Origin: Candidatus Pacearchaeota archaeon
GTDB lineage: Archaea; Nanobdellota; Nanobdellia; Pacearchaeales; GW2011-AR1
Length of the DNA: 64,000 bases
Direction of reading: 5' to 3'
Assembly: GCA_041649755.1 (NCBI GenBank)
Contig: JBAZMK010000002.1
Coordinates: forward strand, 26,247-90,246
Each line of letters begins with the position of its first letter. Within the stretch, counting starts at the first letter, position 1. A program made the translations under genes and the position numbers. Positions 10,782 through 64,000 of the stretch are shown here, one piece after another. The notes beneath the pieces are model-generated. The model had not been told where the DNA came from. It did no database searches and was given only the letters and a program-made list of their open reading frames with translations.

Positions 10782-10822
10782 AAAAAAAGAAAAGAAACTT
10801 CATTAATAAATATTTGGATAAA

Positions 10823-10999
10823 TTAACAAGAATCTGTATTTTCAACTTCTTCTATATCTCCTTCAGCCCTCTCAAGTGAAAGCGCCGCATCTTCTAATGT
10901 CTCTCTGCACTTGCCTTTCATATTCTTTGCAGTGTCCATTACAATCTCTCCAGCAACTTTCACATGCTCTTCAGCCCTCTCAAGCTCATCTTTTTCCAT
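10823..10999 (-). CDS. Small hypothetical protein (58 aa) with internal LERAE repeat; not in the supplied ORF track
   Basis: Manual translation gives MEKDELERAEEHVKVAGEIVMDTAKNMKGKCRETLEDAALSLERAEGDIEEVENTDSC. A TATA-like TTTATATA lies about 30 nt upstream on the minus strand, suggesting a possible leaderless transcript. Confidence 0.25.
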   Translation of the reverse strand: MEKDELERAEEHVKVAGEIVMDTAKNMKGKCRETLEDAALSLERAEGDIEEVENTDSC

Positions 11000-11080
11000 A
11001 ATCTTCAGACAAATCTATTCTATATAAATGTATTGATACAAAGATAAATTTAAATAGCTCTACAGACTAAATAGTTAAAG

Positions 11081-12058: not shown

Positions 12059-12063
12059 ATAAA

Positions 12064-12990: not shown

Positions 12991-14120
12991 AAACACTATC
13001 TGACTTTAATTTTAAAAACAAAACAGTTATTCTTCGGTCAGACCTCAATTCAGATGTCATAAAAGGAAAAATAATCCCCTCAGAAAGAATTAAAGAATCT
13101 GCCGAAACAATTAAAGAGCTAAAAAACAAAGGAGCAAAAGTCATAGTAATAGCCCACCAAGGAAGCCCTGGAAAAGAAGATTTTATTTCATTAAAACAAC
13201 ATTCAAAAATTTTAAAGAAGTATACCAAAATTAAATTTGTAAAAGATATCATAGGGAAAAAAGCGATCTCAAAAATAAAAAATCTAAAACCGGGAAAAGC
13301 AATTCTTTTAGAAAATATAAGATTTGAAAAAGAGGAATTTAAAACAGATAAAAAAAATTATTTAATAGGAAAACTCTCTTCTCTCGCAGACTTCTATGTT
13401 AATGACGCATTCTCAGTTTGCCATCGTGAACAGGCATCAATAGTTCTTTTCCCAAAATATTTAGAAAGTTGTGCTGGTCGTCTCTTAGAAAAAGAAGTTA
13501 ATGCCCTAAAAAAATTAAAAATAAAGAATTGTCTTTACATTCTCGCAGGAGCAAAACCATCAGATAATTTAAAATTAATGAAAGAAAAAAAAATCCTTGC
13601 ATGTGGCCTCTTTGGACAAATGTGTTTAATTGCAAAAGGGAAGAAACTGGGGGCTCAAGAAGTATACCTAAGGAATATAATAAAAGATTTTGGTAAAATA
13701 ATCGGTATACTAAAGAATAAACAAAAAAATGTGATGACACCAATTGACTTCGCAGTAAAATTTAAAGGAAAAAGAAAAGAAATTGGATTAGAAGACTTCC
13801 CGGTTAACTTTGAAATTTTTGATATTGGAGAAAAAACAATTAATATATTTGTAAAAGAAATAAAAAAAGCAAAAGCGATTTATATGAAAGGTCCTGCAGG
13901 AGACTGTTCAAACAAAAACTTCAGAAAAGGAACATTCAAAATTCTGAAAGCAATAAGTGAATCAAAAGGATTCTCAGTAATCGGTGGGGGACATTTAAGC
14001 GACGCAATAGAAAAATCTAAAATTGACAAAAATAAGTTCAATCATGTTAGCTTATCAGGGGGTGCACTCTTAAATTACATTGCTGGAGAAAAACTCCCAG
14101 GTCTTGAAGCACTAAAATGA
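12987..14120 (+). CDS. pgk: Phosphoglycerate kinase
   Basis: It has the N-terminal 'ILRSDLNSDV' and a C-terminal 'VIGGGH' (GGGD-like) hinge. It is 377 aa and sits in a glycolytic neighbourhood. Confidence 0.7.
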   Translation: MKTLSDFNFKNKTVILRSDLNSDVIKGKIIPSERIKESAETIKELKNKGAKVIVIAHQGSPGKEDFISLKQHSKILKKYTKIKFVKDIIGKKAISKIKNLKPGKAILLENIRFEKEEFKTDKKNYLIGKLSSLADFYVNDAFSVCHREQASIVLFPKYLESCAGRLLEKEVNALKKLKIKNCLYILAGAKPSDNLKLMKEKKILACGLFGQMCLIAKGKKLGAQEVYLRNIIKDFGKIIGILKNKQKNVMTPIDFAVKFKGKRKEIGLEDFPVNFEIFDIGEKTINIFVKEIKKAKAIYMKGPAGDCSNKNFRKGTFKILKAISESKGFSVIGGGHLSDAIEKSKIDKNKFNHVSLSGGALLNYIAGEKLPGLEALK

Positions 14121-14833
14121 GAATAATTAAAACAAAAAATTATAAAGAGTTATCAAAAAAAGCAACAGAAATCTTAGCCGAAGAAATAAAAAATAAACCA
14201 GACACAACCCTTTTACTTCCTACTGGGAAAACACCTCTTGGGCTTTATAAAAATTTAGTCAAAAAGTATAATAAAAAAAGAATTGATTTCTCAAAAATTA
14301 AAATTTTCAACCTTGACGAGTATTATCTTATAGATAAAGATGACAAAAGAAGTTTTAATTATTATTTAAGAAAAAATCTTCTTGATAAGATTAATGCAAA
14401 AAAAGAAAATGTTTTACTGATAAATGGAAAATCAAAAGACTCAAAGAAAGAATGTGAAAATTACGAGAACAAAATAAGAAAAAATCCAGTTGACATTGCA
14501 ATTTTAGGGGTAGGAAAAAACGGACATATAGCATTTAACGAACCAAGCTCAAAATTTAATTCAAAAACAAGGCTGGTAAAACTAACCAATGAAACAATAA
14601 AAAGAAACTCTTCCTTTTTTAAAAAAGCCCCCAATAAAGCAATAACTTTAGGAATAAAAACTATTTTGTCTTCTAAAAAAATAGTTCTTTTGGCTTCTGG
14701 AAAAGAAAAAGCAAAAGCAATCAAAGAATTAGTTAGTAAAAGAATCTCGGAAGAATACCCTGTCAGTTTTTTAAAAAAACACAAAAATCTCCTTGTTATT
14801 ATTGACAAAGAAGCGGGAAAGTATATAAAATAA
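14117..14833 (+). CDS. Glucosamine-6-phosphate deaminase / 6-phosphogluconolactonase family protein
   Basis: Motifs 'LLLPTGKTPLGLY', 'FNLDEY' and 'ILGVGKNGHIAFNEP' match the NagB/Pgl signature. Confidence 0.7.
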   Translation: MRIIKTKNYKELSKKATEILAEEIKNKPDTTLLLPTGKTPLGLYKNLVKKYNKKRIDFSKIKIFNLDEYYLIDKDDKRSFNYYLRKNLLDKINAKKENVLLINGKSKDSKKECENYENKIRKNPVDIAILGVGKNGHIAFNEPSSKFNSKTRLVKLTNETIKRNSSFFKKAPNKAITLGIKTILSSKKIVLLASGKEKAKAIKELVSKRISEEYPVSFLKKHKNLLVIIDKEAGKYIK

Positions 14834-14850
14834 AAATCCTTAGGTAAAAT

Positions 14851-15945
14851 ATGATTGAAAAAGCATACAAAAAAGCCCTTGAAACAATAGACCTTTGTTC
14901 TCAAAAGCAAGGACTTTACGCATCTGGAGGAAAAAAAGGCTATAGAGGAGTCTGGGCACGAGACAGCATTATTAGTTTAATAGGCGCTATAACTGAAGAT
15001 AAAAAAGACTACAAAGAAATTTTCAAAAGAAGCCTCTTAACCCTAGGAGAAAAACAAAGCAAAAGAGGACAAATACCCAACGCAGTCCACGGATTTGAAG
15101 ATAAAAAACTAAAAGTAGATTACATCTCAATCGATTCTAGCCTTTGGTTCATAATCGGACACTATATCTATAAAGAAAAATACGGAAATTCCCTCTTCAA
15201 AAAAGAAAATAAAAAAATAAAAAAAGCTCTCACTTGGATTGAATATCGCGATTTCGGAGAAGAAGGCTTACCTGACCAACTGCCCACAACCGACTGGCAG
15301 GACGCCTTCCCCCATAAATACGGCGAAGTAATAAACACACAAGCCCTATACTATAAAATTCTAAAACTAATGAAAAACAAAAAAGCAAACAAGATTAGAA
15401 AAATAGTAAATCAAGACAAAGAACATGGTCTTTGGAATGGAAATTATTACTGGGCATACCGCTGGAAAAATCACAATAAGTATAAAGAAATCGGCGAGTG
15501 GTTCGACAGCCTCGGAAACCTTTTAGCAATAATCTTTGACTTAGCCGATAAAAAACAATCAGAAAAAATCATCACTTACATAAAGAAAAACAAAATTAAC
15601 AAACCTTTTCCTGTAAAAGCAATCTGGCCCCCAATAAAAAAAGGAAGCAAATATTGGGAGGATTATTTTTTAGATTGCGACGCAGGAAAACCTTTTCATT
15701 ACCTTAACGGAGGAATCTGGCCGTTCATCGGGGGTTTCTACGTTCTTGCCTTAATAAAAATGAAAAAATTTAAAGAAGCAAAAAAAGAACTACAACTTCT
15801 TGCCGAGTCAAACACAAAAAATAATCCTTTCCCGGAGTGGATAAATCCTCTTGACAAAAAAACCCATGGAGTCTATCAAGCATGGAGTGCAGGGCTCTAC
15901 ATCTTAGCTTACAACTCTTTGAAAAAGAAAAAAGTTTTAATCTAA
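14851..15945 (+). CDS. (alpha/alpha)6-barrel glycoside hydrolase (GDE_C / GH15-GH63-GH100 clan-like)
   Basis: The motif 'GYRGVWARDSIISL' and multiple aromatic-rich segments are typical of amylo-1,6-glucosidase/glucoamylase-type toroids. Confidence 0.45.
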   Translation: MIEKAYKKALETIDLCSQKQGLYASGGKKGYRGVWARDSIISLIGAITEDKKDYKEIFKRSLLTLGEKQSKRGQIPNAVHGFEDKKLKVDYISIDSSLWFIIGHYIYKEKYGNSLFKKENKKIKKALTWIEYRDFGEEGLPDQLPTTDWQDAFPHKYGEVINTQALYYKILKLMKNKKANKIRKIVNQDKEHGLWNGNYYWAYRWKNHNKYKEIGEWFDSLGNLLAIIFDLADKKQSEKIITYIKKNKINKPFPVKAIWPPIKKGSKYWEDYFLDCDAGKPFHYLNGGIWPFIGGFYVLALIKMKKFKEAKKELQLLAESNTKNNPFPEWINPLDKKTHGVYQAWSAGLYILAYNSLKKKKVLI

Positions 15946-15982
15946 TTAGTTTCAATTATGAAATTATTTTTCTTCAAAACAC

Positions 15983-17131
15983 TCACAAACCTAATTTCTC
16001 CTTAATAACGTCAAGCATTTTCTTACTGGTAACTCTATAATCAAGATTTTTGACAACATGTTCCCTTCCAGCTTTTCCCATCTGATTACGGAGCTTCTCA
16101 TCGGTTAAAAGTTTCAAAGTATACTTCTGCAAATCCTCTACGTCCGCCCTATAAGCAAAAGTCTTTGATTTATCAAACTTTACAATCTGCTTGGTGCAAA
16201 ACCCCATAGAAGGATAAGCCCACTCCTCATCTAATTGAACTTCCTCCGCAACTTTGGCTAAAAAGCCCGTCTTATTATGAACAATCGTTTCAGCAGGACC
16301 GCCAACATTTATAGAAATAACAGGTTTCCCGCAAGCCATAGCCTCAACCTGTATCATTCCAAAACCCTCAATTCTAGAAGGTGCGGCATAAATATCACAG
16401 CAATTCAAGACTTCAGCCATAAACTCGGGCGAAAAAGTATCATCAATAAAGACAACTTTGTCAATAATCCCAAGAGACTCCGCCAACTCCCTCTCGATAT
16501 CATGCCACTCGCCTGCACAGTCACTTGGCCAAGACTTACAGACATACTTCCAGTCCTTAAACTCTTTATCAATTTCGGCTAAAGCTCTCATCATTTCCTG
16601 CGCACCCTTAGAAGTAACGTCCCCCCCAATAGTTAAAATCATCTTCTCGTTATCCCTAACACCAAACATTCTTCTCAAGGCAAGCCTTTTCTCTTTATTT
16701 TTTTCAGTATTTTCCATAGGTTTAAACAAATCTGTATCTATCCCTATATGCATCGGAACAATCTTGCTGACATCAACACCATCACGGGCATAAATACTCC
16801 TTACCCACTCGCTCGTCGTAAACATCAGTTTAAGTTTGTTAAACTCTTCTTTATAATTAGCAACCCACCCATCAGCATTAAACCAAGGAATTGGAGTAAC
16901 ACCAAACTTTAAGGGTTCTTGAACAACTTCAGGAACATTCCCCCAAAATCCAACCCCGATAACAAAATCAAAATTCCCATTTCTCAGAAGAAACTCTTTC
17001 TGTATACTTTCCTTAAAGTGACAAGGAACAGCCTCAACACCCAAATTAAGCAACCCCTTATAAAGAAGATCTCCTTGCAGACTCTGTCCATCTGGCTCAG
17101 GGGGGTAGGCGTAAAGAATCAAAGCTTTCAT
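15983..17131 (-). CDS. Glycosyltransferase family 4 (GT-B fold; PIG-A/BshA/MshA-like)
   Basis: The C-terminal 'EGFGMIQVEAMACGKPVISINVGGPAETIVHNKTGFL' is the canonical GT4 EX7E region. Confidence 0.8.
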   Translation of the reverse strand: MKALILYAYPPEPDGQSLQGDLLYKGLLNLGVEAVPCHFKESIQKEFLLRNGNFDFVIGVGFWGNVPEVVQEPLKFGVTPIPWFNADGWVANYKEEFNKLKLMFTTSEWVRSIYARDGVDVSKIVPMHIGIDTDLFKPMENTEKNKEKRLALRRMFGVRDNEKMILTIGGDVTSKGAQEMMRALAEIDKEFKDWKYVCKSWPSDCAGEWHDIERELAESLGIIDKVVFIDDTFSPEFMAEVLNCCDIYAAPSRIEGFGMIQVEAMACGKPVISINVGGPAETIVHNKTGFLAKVAEEVQLDEEWAYPSMGFCTKQIVKFDKSKTFAYRADVEDLQKYTLKLLTDEKLRNQMGKAGREHVVKNLDYRVTSKKMLDVIKEKLGL

Positions 17132-17760
17132 CTTATTTTAACGAGATTAAATGCCTCAACCTTCTTGCAACATCTTTCTTCAAAACTATTTTCGTCAAAG
17201 CCATAAACCTGTTTAATTAAATTTTTTTTCTTAACTAAATCAGTGGATTGCAACCTTATAAATTTATCCGAACTCTTCTTTGCATAACAATGAGCTCCGC
17301 GCCTTGAATAAGAAAAGAAAAAAAGCTTATCACATCCTAGCATCCCATTCTCTATCATAAACTTTACAGCATTATGAACATCAATATGCCTCTTATGCCC
17401 ATATTCTCCATTCTCTCCGTGAGTAAAAATATAATCATACTTAGTTCTACTAATTAAAGATCTTATTCTGTCAACAACCTCTCTCAATTCAACATCTTCT
17501 AAAGAATCATCTTCTAAGTCTGACATAAAACAAGTAGCGTTATAATTCTCACAAACCTTCATAAATTTGGGCGCCCTGTCTGCGTCGTCTTTCCTGCATA
17601 GAGAAACAATCGTGATGTTCCACTTGTTCTGCAGAAGAGTTCCTCCCATCCAAATCGTTTCGTCGTCGGGATGAGCAACAATCACTAAGACCTCTTTCTT
17701 CATTAATAATCCTACTTCAATCAGATTTAAAAATCTTGTCATCACAAGAGACACAATCAA
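17128..17760 (-). CDS. PIG-L / LmbE family N-acetylglucosaminyl deacetylase
   Basis: The zinc-binding 'VIVAHPDDETIWMGGTL' and the downstream 'HxDH'-like 'HKRHIDVH' are present. It overlaps the GT4 gene by 4 nt. Confidence 0.75.
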   Translation of the reverse strand: MIVSLVMTRFLNLIEVGLLMKKEVLVIVAHPDDETIWMGGTLLQNKWNITIVSLCRKDDADRAPKFMKVCENYNATCFMSDLEDDSLEDVELREVVDRIRSLISRTKYDYIFTHGENGEYGHKRHIDVHNAVKFMIENGMLGCDKLFFFSYSRRGAHCYAKKSSDKFIRLQSTDLVKKKNLIKQVYGFDENSFEERCCKKVEAFNLVKIR

Positions 17761-17822
17761 ATCCTAACAAAATAAAGACAACATTTATTAACTTAACTAA
17801 ACATTTAATGAAAGGTGATAAA

Positions 17823-18719
17823 ATGTTTGATGTAGTCAGTTTCGGTTCCGCCCTTATAGATATATTTGTCAACACAGGAATATCAGAAGAAAAAGGATTT
17901 ATGTATTACCCCTTAGGAGAAAAAATCCAAATCAAAGAACTCCGATTTGACATAGGTGGCGGAGGAACAAACACTGCAGTAGCCTTCTCAAGACTGGGGT
18001 TAAAAACTGGATATGTAGGAAAAGTCGGAGACGATGAAAGCGGAGAAAAAGTTATTAAAATGTTGAAAAAGGAAAAAATAAAATTTCTGGGAAAAATAGA
18101 AAAAGGAAAAATTACTGGGCACTCAATAATCCTTGATGGCAAAGGTGGAGAAAGAACAATTTTAGTATACAAAGGAGTTAACGATGAAATAATTATGAAG
18201 GATATAAAGAGGTTTAAAACAAAATGGCTCTATTTTAGTTCATCAAGAGGCAAAAGCTTTCAGACAAAAAAAGAATTAATAGGAATATTAAAGAAAAGGG
18301 GGGTAAAACTCGCATTCAATCCTAGTGCCTACTTAATAAAAAAAGAGAACATAAGCTATCTGCTAAAAATGACTGATATCTTAATCCTTAATAAAGAAGA
18401 AGCACAAATGCTCGTCGGAAAAAGAGAAAAAGACTTGCTTAAGGGACTAAACAAACTTGGTCCAAAGATTATTGTAATAACAGACAAAAACAAATTGATA
18501 AGTTGTTACGACGGAAACAAAAAATATTTTCTAAAACCTAACAAAATAAAAGTTGTTGAAAGAACTGGTGCTGGAGACGCCTTCTCTTCAGGCTTCGTAG
18601 CTGGTCAAATTGCAGGAAAATCAATTGAGTATAGCTTAAGGCTCGGATTAAGAGAAAGCGAATCTGTAATTCAACACTTCGGAGCTAAGAATAATCTAAT
18701 AAGAGAAAAAATAAAATGA
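17823..18719 (+). CDS. PfkB-family carbohydrate kinase (possible 6-phosphofructokinase/ribokinase-like)
   Basis: It has the 'GGGGTNTAVA' and 'GAGDAFSSGFVAG' pfkB signatures. GGTGA lies 5 nt upstream of ATG 17823. It sits next to fba and tpi. Confidence 0.7.
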   Translation: MFDVVSFGSALIDIFVNTGISEEKGFMYYPLGEKIQIKELRFDIGGGGTNTAVAFSRLGLKTGYVGKVGDDESGEKVIKMLKKEKIKFLGKIEKGKITGHSIILDGKGGERTILVYKGVNDEIIMKDIKRFKTKWLYFSSSRGKSFQTKKELIGILKKRGVKLAFNPSAYLIKKENISYLLKMTDILILNKEEAQMLVGKREKDLLKGLNKLGPKIIVITDKNKLISCYDGNKKYFLKPNKIKVVERTGAGDAFSSGFVAGQIAGKSIEYSLRLGLRESESVIQHFGAKNNLIREKIK

Positions 18720-19462
18720 ACTTAAACAAAATTACGAAAAAAGGAAAGGCGTTGTTTCTTGCATACGACCAAGGTTTAGAGCACGGACCAACAGATTTCA
18801 ACGATAAAAATGTAGACCCAAATTATATAATTGATATCGCGAAAAAAGGAAAATATACTGGATTGGTCTTCCAGAAAGGAATTGCTGAAAAGTACAACAA
18901 AGAGATAAAAAAATCAGGGGTCCCATTAATAGTGAAACTAAACGGAAAAACAAATTTAGTCGGAGGCGAACCAGTTTCAACACAAATTTGCAGTGTAGAT
19001 GAATCAATAAAACTTGGAGCAAAAGCTGTCGGCTACACTATTTACATAGGAAGCCAGTACGAATCAAAAATGATGAAAGAATTTTCCGCAATTCAAAAAG
19101 AAGCACACTCAAAAGGATTACCAGTAATTGTATGGGTCTACCCGCGGGGGAAATCCGTTGAAAAAACTCCGAAAAAAGAGCTAATGGCTTACGCCTGTCG
19201 TGTTGGATTAGAAATAGGAGCAGACATAATAAAAATAGTTTACGACGGAAACCAAAAAGACTTAGAATGGGCAGTGAAATCTGCAGGAAAAACTAAGGTA
19301 GTAATCGCTGGAGGAGCAAAGAAAAGCGAAAAATTATTCCTAAAACAAGTCCAGGAATTAAATAGCGCTGGAGCAATTGGTCTAGCTATAGGTAGAAATA
19401 TCTGGCAGTCCACCAATCCTCTAGCAATAACAGAAAAAATAAAAAAAATAATCTGGAAATGA
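18716..19462 (+). CDS. fba: Class I fructose-bisphosphate aldolase (archaeal DhnA/FbaB type)
   Basis: It is 248 aa with 'LAYDQGLEHGP' and a TIM-barrel lysine region 'ADIIKIVY', typical of DhnA-family aldolases. Confidence 0.7.
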   Translation: MNLNKITKKGKALFLAYDQGLEHGPTDFNDKNVDPNYIIDIAKKGKYTGLVFQKGIAEKYNKEIKKSGVPLIVKLNGKTNLVGGEPVSTQICSVDESIKLGAKAVGYTIYIGSQYESKMMKEFSAIQKEAHSKGLPVIVWVYPRGKSVEKTPKKELMAYACRVGLEIGADIIKIVYDGNQKDLEWAVKSAGKTKVVIAGGAKKSEKLFLKQVQELNSAGAIGLAIGRNIWQSTNPLAITEKIKKIIWK

Positions 19463-29935: not shown

Positions 29936-32900
29936 TTACTCTTTCGCCTCGTCGTCAATTTTCTTCTTTTGTTTCTTATCTGCAAGAGACCCCGTTACCT
30001 TAACAAGCAAACCTGGGAGCCCTGTCCCGACAGGAACCGGCTGATTCAAAATTATGTTCTCTATAACCGAAGCAAGTTTATCCTTTTTACCAGTCTTTGT
30101 GGCTTGAACAAAATGCTTAACTGGGGTTTCAAAACTTGCACGGGCAAGAATAGAACTCTTGTCAGAGATTATTCCCATTCTTGTAATTCCTTTTACAACT
30201 CCTGAACAGGTCATAGTATCTGCAACAAGCATAGCGTGCTTCTTGTCAACATTAAGACCCTGAAAAACAATAACCTTTTCAATCTCATTAATAACCGCCT
30301 GACGAGCTGCTTCAATCCCAAACACATCAAATATCTCATGAATATCATTAGTTGTAGTCCTCTGAGAATCAACCCCTTTAAAGCTCAGAACATCTTTCAA
30401 ATTAGACCCTGCAGTCAACACAACAAAATCCTTACCCCTCTTAACAACCAAAACCTGAGATATCTTTTTAACACCAGTCAAGATAACTTCTTTTAATTTC
30501 TCCTTGATTTTATAAATAGCCTTAAAATCCTCCTTAGACATATCTATTGAAATCTGGTCCCCCTTCTTAGCCGCAAATCCCTTGTCCTTTAAAACATCAA
30601 CAACCTTGTCAACAGAAAGATGAGCAGACCTAAGTGAAGAAGGGTTAACACTAATTTTTATTTTCTTTGCACCAAAATCTACCGAAATATTAGAAATGAC
30701 TTCTTTTAACTTAACTTCTCTTATTTTCTCTGCAATCGCCCGAGAGTTACCTTCATTATTATGTTCTTTGTCCATATAAATTTCCATAGTAGGAGTCTTT
30801 GGAAGCTTTCTCGCGTCAAGAATCTCAATTATTCTTGGAAGACCTTGTGTAACCTGCATCTCTGCAACACCTGCTGAGTGGAATACGTTAAGAACCATCT
30901 GAGTGGAAGATTCTCCAAAAGATTGAGCTGCAACAACCCCTATCGCCTCGCCTGGAGCAATCTGTTCTTCCTTATGCTTTGAAGAAACATCAATGCCATC
31001 AATGCCGTACTTAAACTGAACAATACTATTTGATGCATCCCTTACAGTTCCATCATAAGCCACAATCAAATCCTGTAATGCATTAGCAAGTCTTCTGTAA
31101 AGATAACCTGACTTGGGGGTTCTTAAGGCTACATCCATTAAACCATCTCTCCCAGTCATAGAACCGAAGAAAAACTCATCAGGCTTTAGACCCTCCATAA
31201 GAGAACTATAAATGAACCCTCTGGATTTTGGAGACAAATCACCCTTCTTAAAAAAAGAAAGGGTCCTCCCAGTATAACCAAAGTCAATCCTCCTTCCATT
31301 AAGAACCTGCTGACCCACAGAACCTGCTATCTGAGAAATATTCAGAACACTTCCTTTAGCCCCTGAAGCAATCATCTTACTTGCCAAATTGCTCTCTGGA
31401 AGACCTTTCTTAATCGCACTTCCAATCTCTGTTCTTGTCTCGTTCAAAACAGTTAAAATCTTTAATTCTCTCGTCTCCTCAGCACTCTTGCCTGGAAGTA
31501 ATTCAAGACTATTATTATAATAACTCCCTATAATCTCTTGCGTCTTCTTCTCTGCAGAACTTATTATTTCTTGCGTCTTCTTCTTAACCTCTAAAGGAAC
31601 ATCTAAATCTTCCAAAGCCAACGTAAAACCGGTCCTTGATAAAAAAGAAGTCCCCATAGCAAAAATCTTTCTCAATAAATCAACCGCTTCCTCTCTTCCC
31701 ATCTTATTATCCACTTGTTTCAAAACCTCGCCTTTTCCTTTCCTGAACCCGCCAGAACTAACAGACCCGACATCAAGTCCTTTAGGAATTACTTTTAAGA
31801 AGATATTCTTCCCGTCATTATTCTTATTCAAACTTCCGACATTAATATCTGCCCCATATAAAAGCTGGGTTGCATCTTCCTTAGAAACTTCCATATTCTC
31901 AAGAAGATAATTACCACTAACAGCATCATCCACACAACCGAGAAAATTCATACCATTCTTAGGAGAAAATAAATTATTATTTACATTCAACAAAACTTTC
32001 GCTTCAGCCCTTGCTTCTTCAGTCTGGGGGGCGTGAATATTCATCTCATCACCATCAAAGTCAGCTCCATAAGGAAAACAAACAGCGGGATGAATTCTAA
32101 ATGTCCTGCAAGGCAAAACCTTGACAAAATGAGCCATTAAAGAAGCTCTATGAAGAGAAGGATGTCTGTTAAATAAAACAATGTCTCCATCAACTAAGTG
32201 TCTTTCAACAATATAACCAGGTTCTATCTCTTCAACAAGTGCATCTCTAAGGTCATCAGTAATTTTCTTTCTCTTTCCATCATGCCTTATTATATAATTA
32301 GCCCCAGGATATTCCTTAGAAAGAATAATTTTCTTCAACCTTTCCTTATTAATAGAAGTTACTTTTTCCGCAACAGTCAGTATCTTTGCAACCTCAACAG
32401 GAATCCCGACCTCATTTATTTTCATATTGGGGTCTGGAGAAATAACCGTTCTGGCAGAAAAATTAACCCTCTTTCCTGCAAGGTTCTTTCTTATCCTCCC
32501 CTCCTTACCCTTAATTCTCTCTGCAATAGTTTTCAAGGGCTGACCGCTTCTATGTCTCGCAGGAGGAACCTTAGCTATAGAATTATCAAACAAAGTCGTA
32601 ACATGATATTGCAACAAATCCCAAAGGTCTTCAATAATAACTTCTGGCGCACCTGCATTAAGATTCTCCCAAAGACGTTGGTTTGACCGAATTATATCAG
32701 AAAGCTTATGGCTAACATCATCTTCCGACCTCTCTCCTGTTTCAAGAGTTATGGAAGGTCTAACCGTAACGGGAGGAACTAAAAGTAAAGTTAAAACAGC
32801 CCATTCTGGTCTAAGAGTCTTAGCATTAATCCCCAAAATTTTCAAATCTTCATCTGTTACTTTAACAAGCCTCTCACGGATTTCAGAAGGAAAAAGTCTC

Positions 32901-33364
32901 CTCTTCCCACTCCTAAAAGTTGAAGGCTTCTCAATCTTAACTCTTTCCTGAATAATCCCGCAATGAGGGCATTTCTTTCCGTCCTTAGCCTTTTTTATTC
33001 TGGAAGGTAGATCTTTGTTTAAATCCTTCTCGTCTTTTATAAGAATCCTACCACAAGCCTCACAGGTGCATCTAAGAACAATGTCAATTATAGGGAGATA
33101 ATTAATGTGTATAATTGGTCTAGCTAGCTCAATAACCCCTGGATGACCAAGGCACTCTTTTAATCTCCCCCCACAAGTTCTGCATCTCACACCAGGATCA
33201 ACAGCACCAAGCCTCAAATCCATTAAACCCCCATCAACAGGATAACCATCAATATCATAAAGTTCAGGCGTCACAATCTTTGCAACAGCAAGCTTTTTTA
33301 TCTGCTCCGGACTAAGAAGCTGAAAATTCATTGATTTAATTTGTTTTCTTATAGGTCTACTCAT
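29936..33364 (-). CDS. rpoA: DNA-directed RNA polymerase subunit A, apparently fused A'+A'' (1142 aa)
   Basis: The N-terminus carries the A' zinc-binding 'CRTCGGRLKECLGHPG' and 'NADFDGDEMN' is the catalytic Mg site. The C-terminus 'ARASFETPVKHFVQA...PVPVGTGLPGL' is A''-like. No internal stop is present. Confidence 0.85.
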   Translation of the reverse strand: MSRPIRKQIKSMNFQLLSPEQIKKLAVAKIVTPELYDIDGYPVDGGLMDLRLGAVDPGVRCRTCGGRLKECLGHPGVIELARPIIHINYLPIIDIVLRCTCEACGRILIKDEKDLNKDLPSRIKKAKDGKKCPHCGIIQERVKIEKPSTFRSGKRRLFPSEIRERLVKVTDEDLKILGINAKTLRPEWAVLTLLLVPPVTVRPSITLETGERSEDDVSHKLSDIIRSNQRLWENLNAGAPEVIIEDLWDLLQYHVTTLFDNSIAKVPPARHRSGQPLKTIAERIKGKEGRIRKNLAGKRVNFSARTVISPDPNMKINEVGIPVEVAKILTVAEKVTSINKERLKKIILSKEYPGANYIIRHDGKRKKITDDLRDALVEEIEPGYIVERHLVDGDIVLFNRHPSLHRASLMAHFVKVLPCRTFRIHPAVCFPYGADFDGDEMNIHAPQTEEARAEAKVLLNVNNNLFSPKNGMNFLGCVDDAVSGNYLLENMEVSKEDATQLLYGADINVGSLNKNNDGKNIFLKVIPKGLDVGSVSSGGFRKGKGEVLKQVDNKMGREEAVDLLRKIFAMGTSFLSRTGFTLALEDLDVPLEVKKKTQEIISSAEKKTQEIIGSYYNNSLELLPGKSAEETRELKILTVLNETRTEIGSAIKKGLPESNLASKMIASGAKGSVLNISQIAGSVGQQVLNGRRIDFGYTGRTLSFFKKGDLSPKSRGFIYSSLMEGLKPDEFFFGSMTGRDGLMDVALRTPKSGYLYRRLANALQDLIVAYDGTVRDASNSIVQFKYGIDGIDVSSKHKEEQIAPGEAIGVVAAQSFGESSTQMVLNVFHSAGVAEMQVTQGLPRIIEILDARKLPKTPTMEIYMDKEHNNEGNSRAIAEKIREVKLKEVISNISVDFGAKKIKISVNPSSLRSAHLSVDKVVDVLKDKGFAAKKGDQISIDMSKEDFKAIYKIKEKLKEVILTGVKKISQVLVVKRGKDFVVLTAGSNLKDVLSFKGVDSQRTTTNDIHEIFDVFGIEAARQAVINEIEKVIVFQGLNVDKKHAMLVADTMTCSGVVKGITRMGIISDKSSILARASFETPVKHFVQATKTGKKDKLASVIENIILNQPVPVGTGLPGLLVKVTGSLADKKQKKKIDDEAKE

Positions 33365-36300
33365 ATTTATTCTTTAATTCAAATTTAGTTAATAAATGCA
33401 GACTTTGAAGCTCTTCTACTAATAGCTTAAAAGCATAACTCATCTCCACAGGCTCAACCTGATTTGAATGACAAAGACTGCAAACCTTCTTATTATGTAT
33501 CTGGTCATCTATAACAATACTTCCGCATCTTGAGCAAACATAAACTACAACCTTATCAGAATCGTATCTCTCTTTCAAAAGCAAAGACGCTCCGTGACCT
33601 ACAAGAGCCTCCTGCTCCATCTCTCCAAGTCTCAAAGCACCACCCCTTGCCCTTCCCTCTATAGGTTGTCTGGTCAAAAGAGCAATCTTTCCTGAAGCCC
33701 TTGAATGCATCTTATCAGCAACCATATATTTAAGTTTAAGATAGAACATATTCCCTATGAAAATCTTAATAGGCATTCTCTTGCCCGTAACTCCATGATA
33801 CATAACCTCCTTACCACTTTCTCTAAAACCTAGCTTCCTAAGGTTATTTTCTAAAGTATCAATATCTTCCCCTGAAAAAGGTGAAGCATCAATTACCCTG
33901 CCTGACAAAGCAGCAACTTTTCCTGCTAAAACATCCATCAAATAACCTGCAGTCATACGTGAAGGAATCCCATGAGGATTAAACAAAATATCCGGTCTTA
34001 TCCCGTTAGCTGTAAAAGGAATATCCATCTCCGGAGCAATAAAACCAACAACACCTTTCTGACCATGAGGAACGGAGAACTTATCTCCAATCTCTGGAAC
34101 TCTTAACTCTCTCGTCCTTACCTGAACTATCTTGTTTCCCTCTTTATCTTGGGTAACAAAAACAGCATCAACAGTCCCCTTCTCTTCCTGCCGAATAGCA
34201 GAAGAATTCTCTTTCTTTGTCTGAATAGATATTTCCCTCGCTTCACTAAGAAACTTAGGCGGACTAACCTTACCTATAACAACCTCTCCCTCACTCAAAT
34301 CCGCTTCAGGATAGACAATCCCATCATCTTCTAAAAATCTATAGCTCTCTTCAGTCCTATACCCTGAAACCTCTTTGTTAGGGGTGGTAATCTCGTCTTT
34401 CAAACCCCCTGCATAATTCAACTCAACAGAAGTATAAGGTCTAAACTTAGAGCTTCTCCCAAGCCCCCTATCTACAGAACCTTGGTTCAAAACAACAGAA
34501 TCTTCAAGATTATAACCTTCATAAGGCAAAACAGCAAGAACAACATTCTGTCCGACAGGATGAACATTTAAAGTATCATAAAGAAAACTTCTGACCAAGG
34601 GCTTCTGAGGATAATGAAGAAGAGAAACATCTGTGTCTACTCTCACAGGAAAATTTCCTGCATAGATCCCCAAACCCTGTCTATACGCCCTTGAACCCCC
34701 CTTAATCATTCTCGCTGGAGGATTATGATTTGCAAAAGGAATCAAAGAAACACTTACCCCAAAACAATCAATTTTATCAACTTCAAGATGGGTGTGTTCC
34801 GCAGTTACATCTTTTTCATCAAGTGCAATATAGCAGTCATCTTCTTCAGCAGCATCAAGATATTCAATTATCCCTTTCTTAACTAAGTCTTCCCAAACTA
34901 AAGCACCACTTTTTATTAATTCCAAATGTTCGCTCTTAAGCCTTGAAACTCCGTTATCCAAAATAATCAAAGGTCTCATAACCCTGCCCTCCTCTGAGTT
35001 CAAAAAAACTGTATCTAAAAATCTCTCATACTTCACTGACATTTCAACAGGGAGATTCCCATTCCTCCTCTCTTCCCTAACCTTTTTAACAAAATCCTCT
35101 GCATTCTTTACACCTCCGATAAATCGCCCATTATAGAAAATATCTTTGCTCTCTTCTAAAACAAGACCTGCTTTCTCTAAGACAGATAAAATTTTCTTTG
35201 GATCTTCACTAATCCTTATAGAAATTCTTGCAAGAAGAGCAAGATTCTTCCTTAAGCCAATCTCTGTCCCTTCAGGGGTTTCAATTGGACAAAATCTTCC
35301 ATAATGTGTAGGATGAACGGTTCGTGCTGCAAAATTTTCCTGTTCTCCAGGAAGAGTTGAAGTCACTCTCTGTAACTGAGACAAAACCGCAAAAGAATTG
35401 TTCTTATCCATATTCTGCGTAACCCCACTCCTCTCACCAATCCAGGCCCCTGTAGCAATCGCACTCTCAATCCTATGAGTAAACAAAGTTGACTTAGCTA
35501 TCGTTTTTATAGAATAAAATTTCCTTCTTTTGACTGTCTTCTGCAATGTATGTTGAATCTCCCTAAGGAGAATATTCATATTAACTCTGAACAAACTGGA
35601 AAGCAAATCCCCTGAAAGAAGAACCCTCTTATTAGCATAATGGTCTTTATCAGTCATTGAATCCCCTGGATGCTCTTTAGCAATATAAAATTGTTTTATA
35701 AATTTACAAAGAGTTCTCGCCTTTTCAAGACGCGACTCTTTGCCCAGCCCGATATGAGGAAGAAAATAAGAGTCTATTCTTTGCTTCACCCTATCTAACA
35801 TTTCTTTATTAGTCCCTTGTAAAGAACTCTTTTCAGCAATCCACATCAAAGCCTCATTAGTAGAGCCAACCCCTGCAAACTCATAAAGATTGACCATAAG
35901 ACTATCATTCTGTTTACCTATTAATTTTGCTATTTCAGCATCACTGGATAAACCAAGAGCCTTAAGTAAAATAATCGCAGGAATATCCCTAAACCGCGAA
36001 AAAGAAGCCTCTAAAAGCCCATCACTCCCCTCCATTATTGAAATAGGAATCTTATAAGCCCCCCTCTGAGAAAACAACCTCAGCATAAGCCTCTTTCTTG
36101 TCTTCTGAAATTCAATAAATGTCTGGTTGGACGCCAAATCCTCTGCCATAATCATAACACGTTCGTTCCCATTGATAAGAAAATAACCCCCCTGGTCTTT
36201 CGGGTCTATATAATTTTTAATCAAATCTTCTTCACTCATCCCGCTGAGATTACAAGCCTTGCTCTTAATCATAATAGGAATTCTCCCCAACTGAACTTCC

Positions 36301-36611
36301 TCTGTCTCAATCTGCCCAGCATAATTAATTGTCATCTCCATCCAGATAGGAGCAGAATAAGTAAGATTTCTTAGCCTCGCCTCGGCAGGAGTAATAATCC
36401 TTGAGGAACCGTCTGACTCAACAATATCCGGCTTACCCACTCTAATCTTGCCCAGCTTTATTTCAAAATCCTCCGTCGGCAAAGAATCCGAAAGCTCTGT
36501 TACAATCTCCTGCATTCTATTCTCAAAAAAGTCATTAAAAGATTTTATATTCGATTCTACAAGGGAATGATTCTTCAAAAACTCCTTAACTAAGATATGC
36601 TCTTCCATCAA
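33357..36611 (-). CDS. rpoB: DNA-directed RNA polymerase subunit B (unsplit)
   Basis: It is 1084 aa with 'GDKFSVPHGQKGVVG', 'GEMEQEALVGHGAS' and a C-terminal zinc ribbon 'CSRCGS...CSLC'. Confidence 0.9.
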   Translation of the reverse strand: MMEEHILVKEFLKNHSLVESNIKSFNDFFENRMQEIVTELSDSLPTEDFEIKLGKIRVGKPDIVESDGSSRIITPAEARLRNLTYSAPIWMEMTINYAGQIETEEVQLGRIPIMIKSKACNLSGMSEEDLIKNYIDPKDQGGYFLINGNERVMIMAEDLASNQTFIEFQKTRKRLMLRLFSQRGAYKIPISIMEGSDGLLEASFSRFRDIPAIILLKALGLSSDAEIAKLIGKQNDSLMVNLYEFAGVGSTNEALMWIAEKSSLQGTNKEMLDRVKQRIDSYFLPHIGLGKESRLEKARTLCKFIKQFYIAKEHPGDSMTDKDHYANKRVLLSGDLLSSLFRVNMNILLREIQHTLQKTVKRRKFYSIKTIAKSTLFTHRIESAIATGAWIGERSGVTQNMDKNNSFAVLSQLQRVTSTLPGEQENFAARTVHPTHYGRFCPIETPEGTEIGLRKNLALLARISIRISEDPKKILSVLEKAGLVLEESKDIFYNGRFIGGVKNAEDFVKKVREERRNGNLPVEMSVKYERFLDTVFLNSEEGRVMRPLIILDNGVSRLKSEHLELIKSGALVWEDLVKKGIIEYLDAAEEDDCYIALDEKDVTAEHTHLEVDKIDCFGVSVSLIPFANHNPPARMIKGGSRAYRQGLGIYAGNFPVRVDTDVSLLHYPQKPLVRSFLYDTLNVHPVGQNVVLAVLPYEGYNLEDSVVLNQGSVDRGLGRSSKFRPYTSVELNYAGGLKDEITTPNKEVSGYRTEESYRFLEDDGIVYPEADLSEGEVVIGKVSPPKFLSEAREISIQTKKENSSAIRQEEKGTVDAVFVTQDKEGNKIVQVRTRELRVPEIGDKFSVPHGQKGVVGFIAPEMDIPFTANGIRPDILFNPHGIPSRMTAGYLMDVLAGKVAALSGRVIDASPFSGEDIDTLENNLRKLGFRESGKEVMYHGVTGKRMPIKIFIGNMFYLKLKYMVADKMHSRASGKIALLTRQPIEGRARGGALRLGEMEQEALVGHGASLLLKERYDSDKVVVYVCSRCGSIVIDDQIHNKKVCSLCHSNQVEPVEMSYAFKLLVEELQSLHLLTKFELKNKYE

Positions 36612-60054: not shown

Positions 60055-60984
60055 ATGACACATTCTAAAAAATGCCCAGAGTGCAATAGTTCTAATTTAA
60101 TTTATGATGAAACAAGAGGAGAAGTAATTTGCGGTGATTGCGGTCTTTTAGTTGAAGAAAAAATGGTAGACACTTCTCACGAATTAAGAGCCTTTGATAA
60201 ATCTGAAAAGAAATCCCGTGGAGGAGCTCCAATGTCCCTTCAAAAATTTGACAAAGGCTTAACAACAAATGTCGGGGAAATTTCAGACATCTACAAATTA
60301 GACTCAACACAACAAACAAGAAAATACCTAAGACTAAAAAAATGGCAGGAAAGAGTCTCAACATCAATAGAAAGAAATCTTCGTCTTGCAATGTCAGAAT
60401 TAAGAAGAGTAGCGTCCTATCTTGATTTACCTTCTGTTGTTCGTGACGAGTCTGCAAGAATTTACAATTTTGTTCTTCAAAGAGGTCTAGTCAGGGGTCG
60501 TTCAATGGAATCTGTAATAGCAGCCTGCATTTACGCAGCGTGCCGTTCTTACAACATCCCAAGAACCTTAGATGAAATCTCAAACGCATCAGAAGTAGAA
60601 AGAAAAGAAATAGGAAGAACTTACAGGTTTATAATAAGAAAAATAGGCTTAAAAGTAACACCCAGTTCTCCAAAAGACTACATTTCAAGATTCTCCTCCA
60701 CCCTGCACTTATCACCGCAATCACAAAATGAAGCACTAAAAATTCTTCAGAGAGCAGAAGTCTCAGAACTAACTTCTGGCAGAGGTCCTGCAGGAATTGC
60801 CGCAGCTGCACTCTACGTCGCCGCACTTCTAAACGACGAAAAGAAAACACAAAGAGAAGTCGCAGATGTTGCAGGAATAACTGAAGTAACAATAAGAAAC
60901 CGATACAAAGAGCTTCTTGAAAGACTTGATCTAGAAGACAAAATGAAAATCAAAGAAAACGAAAAAAAGAAAAAGAAAGAATAG
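60055..60984 (+). CDS. tfb: Transcription initiation factor IIB (TFB)
   Basis: It has the N-terminal zinc ribbon 'CPECNSSNLIYDETRGEVICGDCG', the B-reader/linker and two cyclin repeats. It is 309 aa. Confidence 0.9.
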   Translation: MTHSKKCPECNSSNLIYDETRGEVICGDCGLLVEEKMVDTSHELRAFDKSEKKSRGGAPMSLQKFDKGLTTNVGEISDIYKLDSTQQTRKYLRLKKWQERVSTSIERNLRLAMSELRRVASYLDLPSVVRDESARIYNFVLQRGLVRGRSMESVIAACIYAACRSYNIPRTLDEISNASEVERKEIGRTYRFIIRKIGLKVTPSSPKDYISRFSSTLHLSPQSQNEALKILQRAEVSELTSGRGPAGIAAAALYVAALLNDEKKTQREVADVAGITEVTIRNRYKELLERLDLEDKMKIKENEKKKKKE

Positions 60985-61284: not shown

Positions 61285-64000
61285 CTAACCTTCTCTATTT
61301 TTCAAAATCTCACATCCACCTGCTAAATCTTTTCCCCTAAACGAAGATAAAGTCACGCCCTCCCCTAACTCTGGCAACTTCGTAACCTGTGTTGTTATCT
61401 TATAATAAACATTTTTATCAAAAGAATACTCCCACCCCTCATTACCATATCTTATATAAATAGTTCTCGAACTGCTTAAAACAAATTCAAAATTCTGATT
61501 CTCCCTACACTCAAATTCGTCCACGCTCACAGATTTAACATAGCACTCTCCCTCTAAGCATTCCTGACCTTCTGCACAGTGTTCATTTACTAAACACACA
61601 ACACACTTTTTCTCCTCAGAACAATAACCTATCCCACAATCTTCATCTACCTCGCACTCAGTTAAATTCCTCTGAACAACCCCTACATCAGGAGTACTTC
61701 CCTCCAACTTAGACATAACGATCATTCTGTAAACACTTAACTTTAAAGCCAAAGCCTCAGCCTTATTGGCATTCGTTCCAGCACCGCCAGTCTCTCCAGT
61801 AATCCCAATAACCTTATCTAACTCATTAAAAATCTTTGTAATATTACCCTCTGAACTGCCTTTTCTTAGAACATCCTCATCTAAATTTTTTATATCCGTT
61901 CGCGCTTTTGACAAAATACTCTCTACTTCTTCTTGAGTAGCCAATTCTCCTTCCAATAGTTCGCTATTCTCTTCAATGAGGGATATAGAAGTACCTTCCA
62001 CAGACTCTATATCCTCTAAACTATCTTCTACACTACTTATATCAAGCCAACACCTTGTATTAACTTCCCCACAATAACCGACATCTTTCCACCTAGTTGA
62101 GTCTACACTAACTCCTGGATTCACCGAAGCACAAACTCTTACAATCCCCTTCAAGGCAATCTCCGAATCAACTGTATCCTCAACTCCTGACTGCAAGTTA
62201 AGATTAGCCATAGATAAAACAGAAGGACTGCCAGAAATACACTCTTTCTCTGTCGTTATCCCCTCTTTTTCAGCCTGTTCCTCAACATACTTATCTGCAA
62301 GGTAATTAATCCCAAGGTCTGTACTAACCTGACCAAACCCGCACCACTCCTCCGCGTCAATCACAACACAAAGCTCTTTATAGCCGGAAGGGGCTGTAAA
62401 GTCAATAGACTCATCGGCAGAATTACCCAAAGCAACAAACCCAGTCTTAACATTAATTATCGGCGAAGAAGCATAATAACTGCTCGCAGGGGGATTCTTC
62501 AAATAAACCCTGTACTGAACCCCCTTATCTTTCCCTGCATAAATATGATAGTAAACCTTATACTGAGAAGTTGACGGAACCGTCGCCTCGCTAAATAACA
62601 CTTCAGAAAACTGAGCATAAAATTGTGATGGACTCTCTGGCTCAAGCAGACTCTCTATTCCCTCAGCAGAAGAAGGGAAGCTCGTACCAATAAATGCCTT
62701 GCAAACTTCACTTCCAGCCTCATCAATACTTCTTATCTGAAACGCCTTAAAAGCATTAGGAGCATAAGTATTTTGAAAATAATCTACACTCTTCTGAAGA
62801 TTATCCCACGCATTCTGAACGAGGAGATACTCTCCGCCACCCCTAACTCCTGACGAACCCCCATAAAGATTCGCAATTAACTTAGGAACTAAAATATCCA
62901 TAACTGGAGAAAACTGCCTCCAAAAGAACTCACACATATAAATCGCAGTTATTTCATCACATATCCCCACATGCTCGCCAGTCTCAAGACTCCACTGAAG
63001 ACAATCCCTTTCAGACTCAAGTATAGAAACGAAAGCATCAATACCCGCCACAACACCACTTACACAAATAGGAACAATAACCCCCTCTTGAAAATTGGGA
63101 AGACACAAAATCAAACTTCCGATAATCCCTGTCTGAATAACATCACTCACAGGCATTTTACCTCCTAAATCACATCTGGAAGCAGGGCAGATAACAGGGT
63201 CACATACATTAAACAAAATCTTACAATCCTGAGGACTCATAAAATCCTGACATTCAAAGCCCGTAACAGCACTCATTGGACTCCCCACATCAATCTTTTG
63301 ATTAAGAATCGTAACAACTTTTTGGTCTTTCTGTGCAGAGGCCTGCCTTATCGCCTCCCGAGCATTATTATATAAATTCTTAACTTCAGTAGAAGTCAAG
63401 GAAGGACAAGGGATAAATTTATCTACACTTCCTGCACTATTAATGTCAAAAGTCTGACACAAATCGTCACTCAAACCACTCTCCATCTTCCTATTAGACC
63501 CAATATTGCAAATCTTAAAATAACTAACATCTCCCGAAGCAGTATATCCTTGCACAGAAGTATCTAAAAAAGTCCCTCCAGAATTCGGAACCATAACATA
63601 CCAGCCGTTTTTCAAATCAAAAGGAACAATCCCAGGCAGACCTTTCACATTGCCAGATTCATAATAACTTATCTTTGCAGTCCCCTCAGGCCAGGAATTA
63701 GAACAACTCCCAGAACCTTCCTGCGAAAAAACATACTTTTCAAAAGTCTTTCTTTCAGTGTCAGTCTTATCAACCCAACCACTCCCCTCTCTTAAATAAA
63801 TCTTCTCTGCATACATATTGCTCCCTGCTAAATCCTCTTTCAACTTCAAAAGATACATCCTTCCATCAAGATTCAAAAATTGAATTTTATCACCCCTATT
63901 CAACCCACTAACACTTCCTGCTAACTGAGAATTAGCAATATCCTTTCCCCAACGCAAAGTCCTCACTTCCTTGCTCGTAACTGACTGAACGCTCGGGCTA
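61285..64000 (-). CDS. Large Cys-rich putative secreted/surface protein (N-terminus beyond window)
   Basis: More than 900 aa, with the frame open to the window edge. It has many Cys pairs and C-terminal CxxC/Cx2-5C clusters ('CEVDEDCGIGYCSEEKKCVVCLVNEHCAEGQECLEGECY'). It is low in Lys and rich in G/S/T/D, with higher GC than the flanks. No recognisable enzyme motif was found. Confidence 0.6.
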   Translation of the reverse strand, partial: SPSVQSVTSKEVRTLRWGKDIANSQLAGSVSGLNRGDKIQFLNLDGRMYLLKLKEDLAGSNMYAEKIYLREGSGWVDKTDTERKTFEKYVFSQEGSGSCSNSWPEGTAKISYYESGNVKGLPGIVPFDLKNGWYVMVPNSGGTFLDTSVQGYTASGDVSYFKICNIGSNRKMESGLSDDLCQTFDINSAGSVDKFIPCPSLTSTEVKNLYNNAREAIRQASAQKDQKVVTILNQKIDVGSPMSAVTGFECQDFMSPQDCKILFNVCDPVICPASRCDLGGKMPVSDVIQTGIIGSLILCLPNFQEGVIVPICVSGVVAGIDAFVSILESERDCLQWSLETGEHVGICDEITAIYMCEFFWRQFSPVMDILVPKLIANLYGGSSGVRGGGEYLLVQNAWDNLQKSVDYFQNTYAPNAFKAFQIRSIDEAGSEVCKAFIGTSFPSSAEGIESLLEPESPSQFYAQFSEVLFSEATVPSTSQYKVYYHIYAGKDKGVQYRVYLKNPPASSYYASSPIINVKTGFVALGNSADESIDFTAPSGYKELCVVIDAEEWCGFGQVSTDLGINYLADKYVEEQAEKEGITTEKECISGSPSVLSMANLNLQSGVEDTVDSEIALKGIVRVCASVNPGVSVDSTRWKDVGYCGEVNTRCWLDISSVEDSLEDIESVEGTSISLIEENSELLEGELATQEEVESILSKARTDIKNLDEDVLRKGSSEGNITKIFNELDKVIGITGETGGAGTNANKAEALALKLSVYRMIVMSKLEGSTPDVGVVQRNLTECEVDEDCGIGYCSEEKKCVVCLVNEHCAEGQECLEGECYVKSVSVDEFECRENQNFEFVLSSSRTIYIRYGNEGWEYSFDKNVYYKITTQVTKLPELGEGVTLSSFRGKDLAGGCEILKNREG

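Follow-up and report, generated by a model that had tools for sequence, protein, structure and literature searches.

Giant Cys-rich proteins encoded next to a prepilin-like partner are candidate host-contact surface proteins of Pacearchaeota and Woesearchaeota

Introduction

Large (up to 3,000 amino acids, aa) extracellular proteins with SLT domains are described, in the passages devoted to them by Castelle et al. (2021, Front Microbiol; PMC8204110), as widespread in Pacearchaeota and Woesearchaeota and mostly absent elsewhere; the role proposed there is that of extracellular enzymes attaching to host (bacterial) cell walls. According to the same passages, Rinke 2013 and Castelle 2015 had earlier noted such proteins in three genomes, and the corresponding part of a later paper (PMC11537232) repeats the account. 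Our literature search on the family returned these genomic notes and a citation of them, and no functional or structural study. Here we analyse a giant gene that is probably a member of this family. Its 3' part occupies positions 61285 to 64000 (minus strand) of a 64,000-nt stretch of DNA, hereafter the window, from a Candidatus Pacearchaeota archaeon (assembly GCA_041649755.1, contig JBAZMK010000002.1, forward-strand positions 26,247 to 90,246). A previous inspection of the letters without database searches, referred to below as the sequence-only reading, had singled out this gene as encoding a putative Cys-rich surface protein.

The giant family is probably the SLT-domain family fam00969 described in Castelle et al. 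2021, a match made by description only, against the passages cited above. Both are restricted to the same lineages, reach ~2,800-3,000 aa and are predicted to be extracellular, and some homologs of the window protein carry PF01464 (SLT) C-terminal to a conserved core. Unlike the proteins portrayed in those passages, the window copy lacks SLT and any other lytic domain, as do the relatives closest to it.

Other described systems resemble the locus in its arrangement. The PilY1/PilC tip adhesins of bacterial type IV pili, with their minor pilins, and the PilY-like adhesin of the archaeal type IV filament (TFF) subsystem 4A (bioRxiv 10.64898/2026.04.22.720090) are, like the giant protein in related genomes, large Sec-exported proteins encoded beside a pilin-like gene, with a presumed role in adhesion. 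The giant protein differs from them in lacking a PilY1-type beta-propeller and any match in sequence or fold, and its neighbour, hereafter the partner, has ~600 aa, far above pilin size, with no adjacent ATPase or platform genes in the inspected loci. SlaA/SlaB of the Sulfolobales also form a two-gene surface module in which one component is membrane-anchored, and the bindosome provides a precedent for class III signals on large non-pilin surface proteins. Neither shows sequence or fold similarity to the giant protein, which in contrast is Cys-rich, with a highly conserved core and few glycosylation sequons.

Results

The window encodes the C-terminal part of a giant protein that is very probably exported

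A partial open reading frame (ORF) of more than 900 aa had been proposed, and this proved correct: a single minus-strand frame of 904 codons ends at a stop codon at 61285-61287 and runs without a further stop to the window edge. The closest relative, gene L038:4767-9893 of a Pacearchaeota metagenome-assembled genome, encodes a 1,708-aa protein beginning with the signal peptide MKNYLRFFGFFLILLLASFVASF. The window fragment aligned end to end with aa 801-1708 of this protein (61% identity over 922 columns) and has the same C-terminal module, so that ~800 N-terminal residues, presumably including a signal peptide, lie beyond the window edge. Across 80 genome loci, nearly all full-length genes (1,550-2,550 aa) start with comparable Sec-type signal peptides; full-length members of the family as a whole measure 1,550-2,830 aa. 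The sequence-only reading had proposed a search for a signal peptide upstream and named its lack as a ground for refutation; the collinear L038 protein, like nearly all full-length relatives, has one, and the reading is not refuted on this point. The complete window protein very probably has ~1,700 aa and, by comparison with these relatives, is exported via Sec.

The family is near-universal in Pacearchaeota and Woesearchaeota

A search of public proteins gave at least 158 matches; the best 120 had E values of 0 to 1e-141 and 37-69% identity, and their sources were named Nanoarchaeota, Pacearchaeota, Woesearchaeota or similar. An exhaustive hidden Markov model (HMM) search with a profile of the core against representatives of 50%-identity clusters recovered 1,085 representatives, 965 of them at E <= 1e-30, with lengths up to 2,833 aa. 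Few matches fell between 1e-3 and 1e-10, and the family is therefore sharply bounded. When one genome per GTDB species was scanned, relatives were found in at least 497 genomes, essentially all of them Pacearchaeota, Woesearchaeota or Nanoarchaeota. These sequence searches indicate that the giant protein family is near-universal in Pacearchaeota and Woesearchaeota. We regard the gene as an ancestral chromosomal gene of that DPANN branch, lineage-specific and vertically inherited. The window copy contains the ~570-aa core with all four family motifs, FNVCDPVICPxSRC (aa 263-276), GGGEY (aa 387-391), QYKV(F/Y)YHIYAG (aa 478-489) and CWLD (aa 650-653), and adds a further member to a DPANN family that had been noticed before and is uncharacterised. 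Its assignment to a small symbiotic archaeon in the sequence-only reading agrees with the gene content of the window, which includes archaeal RNA polymerase, TFIIB, Alba and tRNA-splicing endonuclease, and with relatives that all come from Pacearchaeota, Woesearchaeota or Nanoarchaeota.

A few members are filed under other names. L013 and the proteins P0060, P0070 and P0112 belong to bins labelled Omnitrophota, Ignavibacteria, Levybacteria or Thaumarchaeota, with contigs no longer than ~3-7 kb, and probably reflect errors of binning and not a true occurrence outside DPANN. Locus L084 (GCA_013166765.1, JABKBV010000001.1, 569 kb), filed as 'Methanococcoides sp. SA1', carries the two-gene module at locus positions 10001-19390, with a partner of 613 aa, a giant protein of 2,102 aa with an SLT domain, and a convergent TFIIB gene. 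It looks like a DPANN genome under a methanogen name, which would be a mislabel or a hint of co-culture.

In related genomes the giant gene is coupled to a partner with a prepilin-like N-terminus

In related genomes, a gene as conserved as the giant gene and encoding a protein of 610-650 aa was found upstream of it in 72 of 83 loci; each of the other 11 has less than 2.6 kb of sequence upstream of the core. The partner stop codon overlaps the giant start codon by 4 nt (ATGA) in 38 of 71 loci, and the giant gene is, as this overlap indicates, translationally coupled to the partner. Most partner N-termini (65/71) match [K/R][G/A/S]Q plus a hydrophobic residue, after which ~20 hydrophobic residues are visible (for example KRGQVTIFIILAIVIV). 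Such an N-terminus is built like an archaeal class III (prepilin/archaellin-type) signal peptide, and we take the motif and hydrophobic stretch to be akin to the class III signals found on pilins, on archaellins and on proteins of the bindosome. At least 1,820 proteins belong to the partner family; every one is annotated as hypothetical, and none has a Pfam domain.

At three loci (L002, L003 and L057) the first in-frame ATG of the giant gene lies 1.8-2.7 kb past the partner gene, with several short ORFs between. The N-terminal part is apparently fragmented there, be it through decay of the gene, frameshifts or errors of assembly.

The most conserved part of the family is a Cys-rich core with a hydrophobic hairpin

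Conservation was computed over 121 sequences and defines a core at aa ~100-670 of the fragment. Its hallmark, and the most conserved part of the family, is a Cys-rich helical region (window 62638..63252, minus strand, aa 250-454). Ten Cys at aa 250-356 are invariant in 100% of the 121 aligned sequences, and the region also has the motif FNVCDPVICPxSRCxLGG; in the alignment, 17 Cys are nearly invariant. The GGGEY motif (62827..62841, minus strand) has G387, G388 and Y391 invariant and G389 and E390 at least 90% conserved; Y412 is a further invariant column. The Cys would form disulfides, as their invariance and the predicted export suggest.

Within this region lies a hydrophobic, Gly-rich hairpin, VSDVIQTGIIGSLILCLPNFQEGVIVPICVSGVVAGIDAFVSIL (63019..63150, minus strand, aa 284-327), delimited by hydropathy and homolog conservation. 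It consists of two uncharged segments, aa 287-303 and aa 306-320, joined by a polar turn (NFQEG in the window copy), with the invariant C299 and C312 flanking the turn and arms. The Kyte-Doolittle mean over 19 aa reaches 2.13. Among 119 homologs, none has a charged residue in the first arm, the second arm is uncharged at most positions (exceptions 306, 308 and 317), and the GxxG and GxxxG motifs are invariant. The strongly hydrophobic stretch at aa 282-327 is the only one in the fragment, and the C-terminus has no hydrophobic segment.

AlphaFold2 (AF2) modelled the whole 904 aa with a predicted local distance difference test score (pLDDT) of 70.7 and a predicted TM score (pTM) of 0.34; the flanking beta domains were modelled well and the hallmark core poorly. 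On the isolated core (aa 236-460) pLDDT was 59, with no usable fold for the Cys cluster and aa 250-285 unmodelled; helices at aa 313-340, 345-379 and 389-427 reached pLDDT 74-86 in this run only. The core had no match in Pfam, the PDB or BFVD (none in BFVD at E < 1e-3).

C-terminal modules are exchanged between lineages

Family members diverge past the CWLD motif, and the module that follows the core is swapped between lineages. Modules seen across the family include SLT, amidase, glucosaminidase, NlpC/P60, GH3, trypsin-like protease, ankyrin, LRR, LysM and Cys-rich repeats. A minority of the public-protein matches (at least 158) carry PF01464 (SLT), PF01520 (amidase), PF01832 (glucosaminidase) or trypsin-like domains. 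Of the longest representatives, 19 were scanned: four had SLT, two ankyrin and one each GH3, DUF1615, NlpC/P60 and LRR. In a set of 77 tails (76 from related loci and that of the window), four had SLT, two trypsin and one LysM; the remainder had no Pfam match. Cys-dense modules of several kinds occur in 15/77 tails.

The SLT domain lies ~200-340 aa past the core in the positive controls P0067 and P0053. In the window fragment, which includes the whole C-terminal region, PF01464 was not found at E <= 0.1, and the full-length L038 protein likewise has no SLT. Collectively, these domain assignments indicate that SLT is an optional accessory and not the defining feature of the family; ~5-20% of members have SLT or another lytic domain.

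The window copy instead carries a lineage-variable module of two tandem Cys units of ~20 aa plus one Cys (61507..61656, minus strand, aa 782-831; low AF2 confidence). The spacing is C-x5-C-x4-C-x5-C followed by C-x5-C-x5-C-x4-C, a pattern common to L038, L008, L004 and P0001 and different from most other tails. A match to TIGR04201 (Myxo_Cys_RPT) at aa 799-819 reached 13.7 bits (E = 0.053), below the 25-bit cut-off.

Remaining domains and composition of the fragment

N-terminal to the hallmark region, one or more beta-rich domains with a long helix at the end (63280..63969, minus strand, aa 11-240; AF2 pLDDT mostly 88-97) contain the conserved motifs KGxPAxVPFDxxxGWY and CNVGxNG...DDxC. On its other side lies a beta-sandwich region with embedded helices (62005..62637, minus strand, aa 455-665; pLDDT ~86-95 except at aa 596-615), which ends in a conserved C-x6-CWLD; seven nearly invariant Cys (C433, C544, C553, C587, C623, C643 and C650) lie in or near it. 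The sequence-only reading had pointed to an acidic Glu/Ser-rich linker, and SLEDIESVEGTSISLIEENSELLEGELATQEEVES was indeed found at aa 660-694 (61918..62022, minus strand), where homolog conservation drops and pLDDT falls below 50 at aa 667-686. A helical stalk follows (61699..61935, minus strand, aa 689-767), with AF2 helices at aa 689-704, 718-731 and 743-767 (pLDDT 74-96) and, in the consensus of the tails, the semi-conserved motif N-x2-KA-x-AL-x-LK-x3-Y. After the Cys module, alignment to the L038 C-terminus delimits a small terminal beta domain (61288..61506, minus strand, aa 832-904; pLDDT 29-65) that is common to the closest relatives only and covered by only 0-6 of 120 homologs. Structure prediction, a check that the sequence-only reading had called for, yielded surface-type beta-sandwich domains; the core was poorly modelled and resembled no known fold.

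Composition was compared by binomial test with the other 50 window ORFs of at least 150 aa. The 904-aa fragment has 31 Cys where 10.3 were expected (P = 1e-7), 94 Ser against 55 (P = 4e-7) and a mild excess of Gly (P = 0.004), and contains 52 Lys against 105 expected (P = 1e-9); Thr (P = 0.29) and Asp (P = 0.11) were not enriched. The composition previously given as rich in G, S, T, D and C and poor in K therefore stands for Cys, Ser, low Lys and, mildly, Gly, and falls for Thr and Asp. The fragment is strongly acidic (net charge -51) and has 2 N-x-S/T sequons in 904 aa, or 0.22 per 100 aa versus 0.49 in the other window ORFs. The Cys are grouped in two clusters, 10 at aa 250-360 and 9 at aa 782-831, with spacings of 5-9 residues, and the others are scattered and conserved. 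The second cluster is the C-terminal run of closely spaced Cys that had been noticed by eye (9 Cys in 50 aa). The 'stacked CxxC knots' of the same account have to be abandoned, as there is a single literal CxxC (CVVC at aa 799).

Scans of the ORF with Pfam and NCBIfam gave no significant match and no enzymatic domain, PHROGs gave 0 families, PDB searches with the single sequence and with a profile gave no match, and no paralog of the giant gene was found within the window. The absence of an enzymatic motif, noted in the sequence-only reading, was thus upheld, and no intracellular enzyme family was matched.

The GC content of the ORF is 0.403 versus a window mean of ~0.35. The value predicted for this amino-acid sequence under window codon usage is 0.394, leaving a residual of +0.009 (z = 1.0), and GC3 (0.341) and the synonymous-codon distance are within the range of other long window genes. 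The raised GC thus follows from low Lys and high Gly, Ser and Cys and carries no foreign signature: the GC shift reported before is real, and there is no codon-usage signal behind it.

Genomic neighbourhood

The window is a housekeeping region, with genes for PheRS, GAPDH, PGK, ArgRS, IleRS, RNA polymerase B and A, ABCE1, NrdD, ThyX, DNA ligase, Alba and a tRNA-splicing endonuclease. TFIIB (60055-60984) lies on the downstream side of the giant gene and is convergent with it. Among 83 related loci, 53 likewise have TFIIB on the downstream side, in convergent orientation in 52 of them, and L084 has it too. Beyond TFIIB there is an S8e gene in L001, L002, L003 and L084 and then an LSm gene in L001-L003. 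On the other side, an S3Ae gene precedes the partner in L001, L002 and L084, with NDK, SRP54 and FtsY also upstream in L001 and L084; the window ends short of this block.

Just upstream of the partner in L038 (93-2870, plus strand) there are an Asn/Ser/Thr-rich ORF, a 161-aa protein with an N-terminal hydrophobic helix and a 424-aa protein that has a signal peptide as well as a membrane anchor at its C-terminus; the latter matches a WxLIP host-binding domain below threshold (27.1 versus 28.9 bits).

RNA polymerase subunit A is split into A' and A'' in most archaea. In the window it is apparently encoded by one unsplit ORF of 1,142 aa (29936-33364, minus strand) with Rpb1 domains 1-5; this ORF and the end of the gene for subunit B (33357-36611) share 8 nt.

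Discussion

We favour, with slightly more confidence than doubt, the interpretation that the giant protein is a Sec-exported surface protein acting in host contact. Beta-sandwich modules, as modelled here, are typical of surface proteins. The idea of a host-attachment or surface protein, already voiced in the sequence-only reading, is strengthened by the export signals of relatives and by the lack of any match to an intracellular enzyme. In the mechanism that we propose, prepilin peptidase would process the partner, whose N-terminal helix would hold it in the membrane or in a pilus-like filament, and the partner would dock the giant protein on the cell surface, with the beta-sandwich domains as spacers. 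The common working part would be the invariant helical core, rich in Cys and containing the uncharged Gly-rich hairpin, serving as a membrane anchor or in membrane insertion, and the variable C-terminal module would bind or attack the envelope of a partner or host cell. Because the module of the window copy is a two-unit Cys-rich repeat with a small beta domain, this copy probably binds rather than lyses.

Several observations weigh against this interpretation. The N-terminus of the window copy and the gene upstream of it lie beyond the window edge, so that export is read from relatives, and the class III signal of the partner is deduced from a sequence motif only. No type IV filament genes (ATPase, platform) stand beside the module in the window or in the inspected loci, and ~70 of the 77 C-terminal tails have no domain recognisable by Pfam. 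Metal binding by the Cys is also compatible with the data, the disulfides being predicted. Since the core has no detectable homolog or confident model, any role assigned to it is guesswork.

The giant protein could, by analogy with SlaA/SlaB, be a structural component of an S-layer or cell wall, forming an outer canopy on a membrane stalk provided by the partner, with the C-terminal enzymes as decorations. The signal peptide, large size, acidity and beta-sandwich domains all fit such a component, as do the two-gene operon with a membrane-anchored partner, the near-universal and fixed locus, as expected for an essential part of the envelope, and the other surface-protein genes just upstream in L038. 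We nevertheless consider it unlikely, since S-layer proteins usually diverge fast and the core here retains 37-69% identity over the 120 listed homologs with 17 nearly invariant Cys. The 2 sequons in 904 aa amount to half the background density, the Pfam and NCBIfam scans detected no known S-layer domain, a C-terminal hydrophobic anchor segment is absent, and the swapping of lytic and protease modules would suit an offensive or host-directed role better. The S-layer-like option of the sequence-only reading is accordingly weak and disfavoured, on account of the conserved core, the Cys and the few sequons. A sharper version of the host-contact interpretation, which we regard as rather improbable, is that the protein is a membrane-active penetration device: the Cys-stapled hairpin would enter the host membrane once the wall is bound or breached and make a pore, a conduit or a fusion site for metabolite uptake, which in function would be comparable to the tape-measure protein Pb2 of phage T5. 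The hydropathy of the hairpin (up to 2.13), its GxxG/GxxxG motifs and a first arm uncharged in 119 homologs speak for it; so do the wall-degrading enzymes of some members and the low AF2 confidence in the most conserved part, as is possible for regions that depend on a membrane or an oligomer. Yet each hydrophobic arm has only ~15-17 residues, the hairpin may instead lie buried at the centre of a disulfide-rich helical bundle or anchor the protein in the membrane of the archaeon itself, most members have no lytic domain, and searches of the PDB, BFVD and PHROGs revealed no likeness to pore-formers, fusogens or tape-measure proteins.

The many invariant Cys might also be ligands of Zn or Fe-S in a cytoplasmic or membrane protein and not disulfide partners. 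Anoxic habitats are common among DPANN archaea, and the stability of extracellular disulfides is less obvious there, which counts in favour of metal binding. We judge it very unlikely all the same: the signal peptides of homologs are Sec-type and not Tat-type, the single CxxC and the remaining Cys show no known cluster-binding spacing, no metal-binding family was matched in Pfam or NCBIfam, and the Cys occur in helices as well as in beta domains, a distribution like that of extracellular proteins stabilised by disulfides. Finally, the higher GC and atypical amino-acid composition could be taken as marks of a foreign or mobile-element gene, and the sequence-only reading had listed recent horizontal acquisition as an option. 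The GC is accounted for by amino-acid content, synonymous codon usage is normal, the neighbours are housekeeping genes, and phage-family (PHROGs) and viral-fold (BFVD) searches gave no match; the gene also keeps its position by TFIIB and the partner gene in dozens of genomes. Given this fixed chromosomal position and native codon usage, we reject recent horizontal gene transfer, and a foreign origin of this kind is extremely improbable.

Polymorphic effectors and toxins (Rhs, CDI, MAFB-type) combine, like the giant family, a conserved N-terminal and central scaffold with C-terminal enzymatic or binding modules that vary by lineage. The giant family differs in that Pfam scans found no RHS/YD, PT-HINT or other pre-toxin domains, no cognate immunity gene is apparent (TFIIB or a small ORF comes next downstream), and its modules are not nucleases or deaminases but hydrolases of the wall or repeats that bind. 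The tape-measure protein Pb2 of phage T5 contains hydrophobic segments and a muralytic domain. Phage tape-measure proteins are thus comparable in their length, helical regions and hydrophobic segments, and in the C-terminal SLT or peptidase domain of some giant-family members. In contrast to them, the giant protein has no PHROGs or BFVD match, a Sec signal peptide in its family and a chromosomal housekeeping context with no prophage.

It is conceivable, though we would call it a long shot, that the two-gene module is a conserved host-penetration apparatus of Pacearchaeota and Woesearchaeota, displayed on a pilus-like stalk, fitted with interchangeable modules that bind or breach envelopes and opening a conduit or fusion site in the host membrane through the hairpin. 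If so, both the class of membrane-active protein and its fold would be new.

Beyond what the published passages report, the present analysis adds a coupled prepilin-type partner, a fixed chromosomal position, the status of SLT as a minority accessory, after which those passages name the family, and a core hairpin with no known fold. The type of C-terminal module could mark the type of host, bacterial murein versus archaeal envelopes. Few uncultivated archaea are as abundant as Pacearchaeota and Woesearchaeota. Being near-universal, very large, exported and equipped with interchangeable modules for wall degradation or for binding, the giant family is one of the best genomic handles on how these archaea contact other cells, and the new details give it more shape and a testable mechanism.

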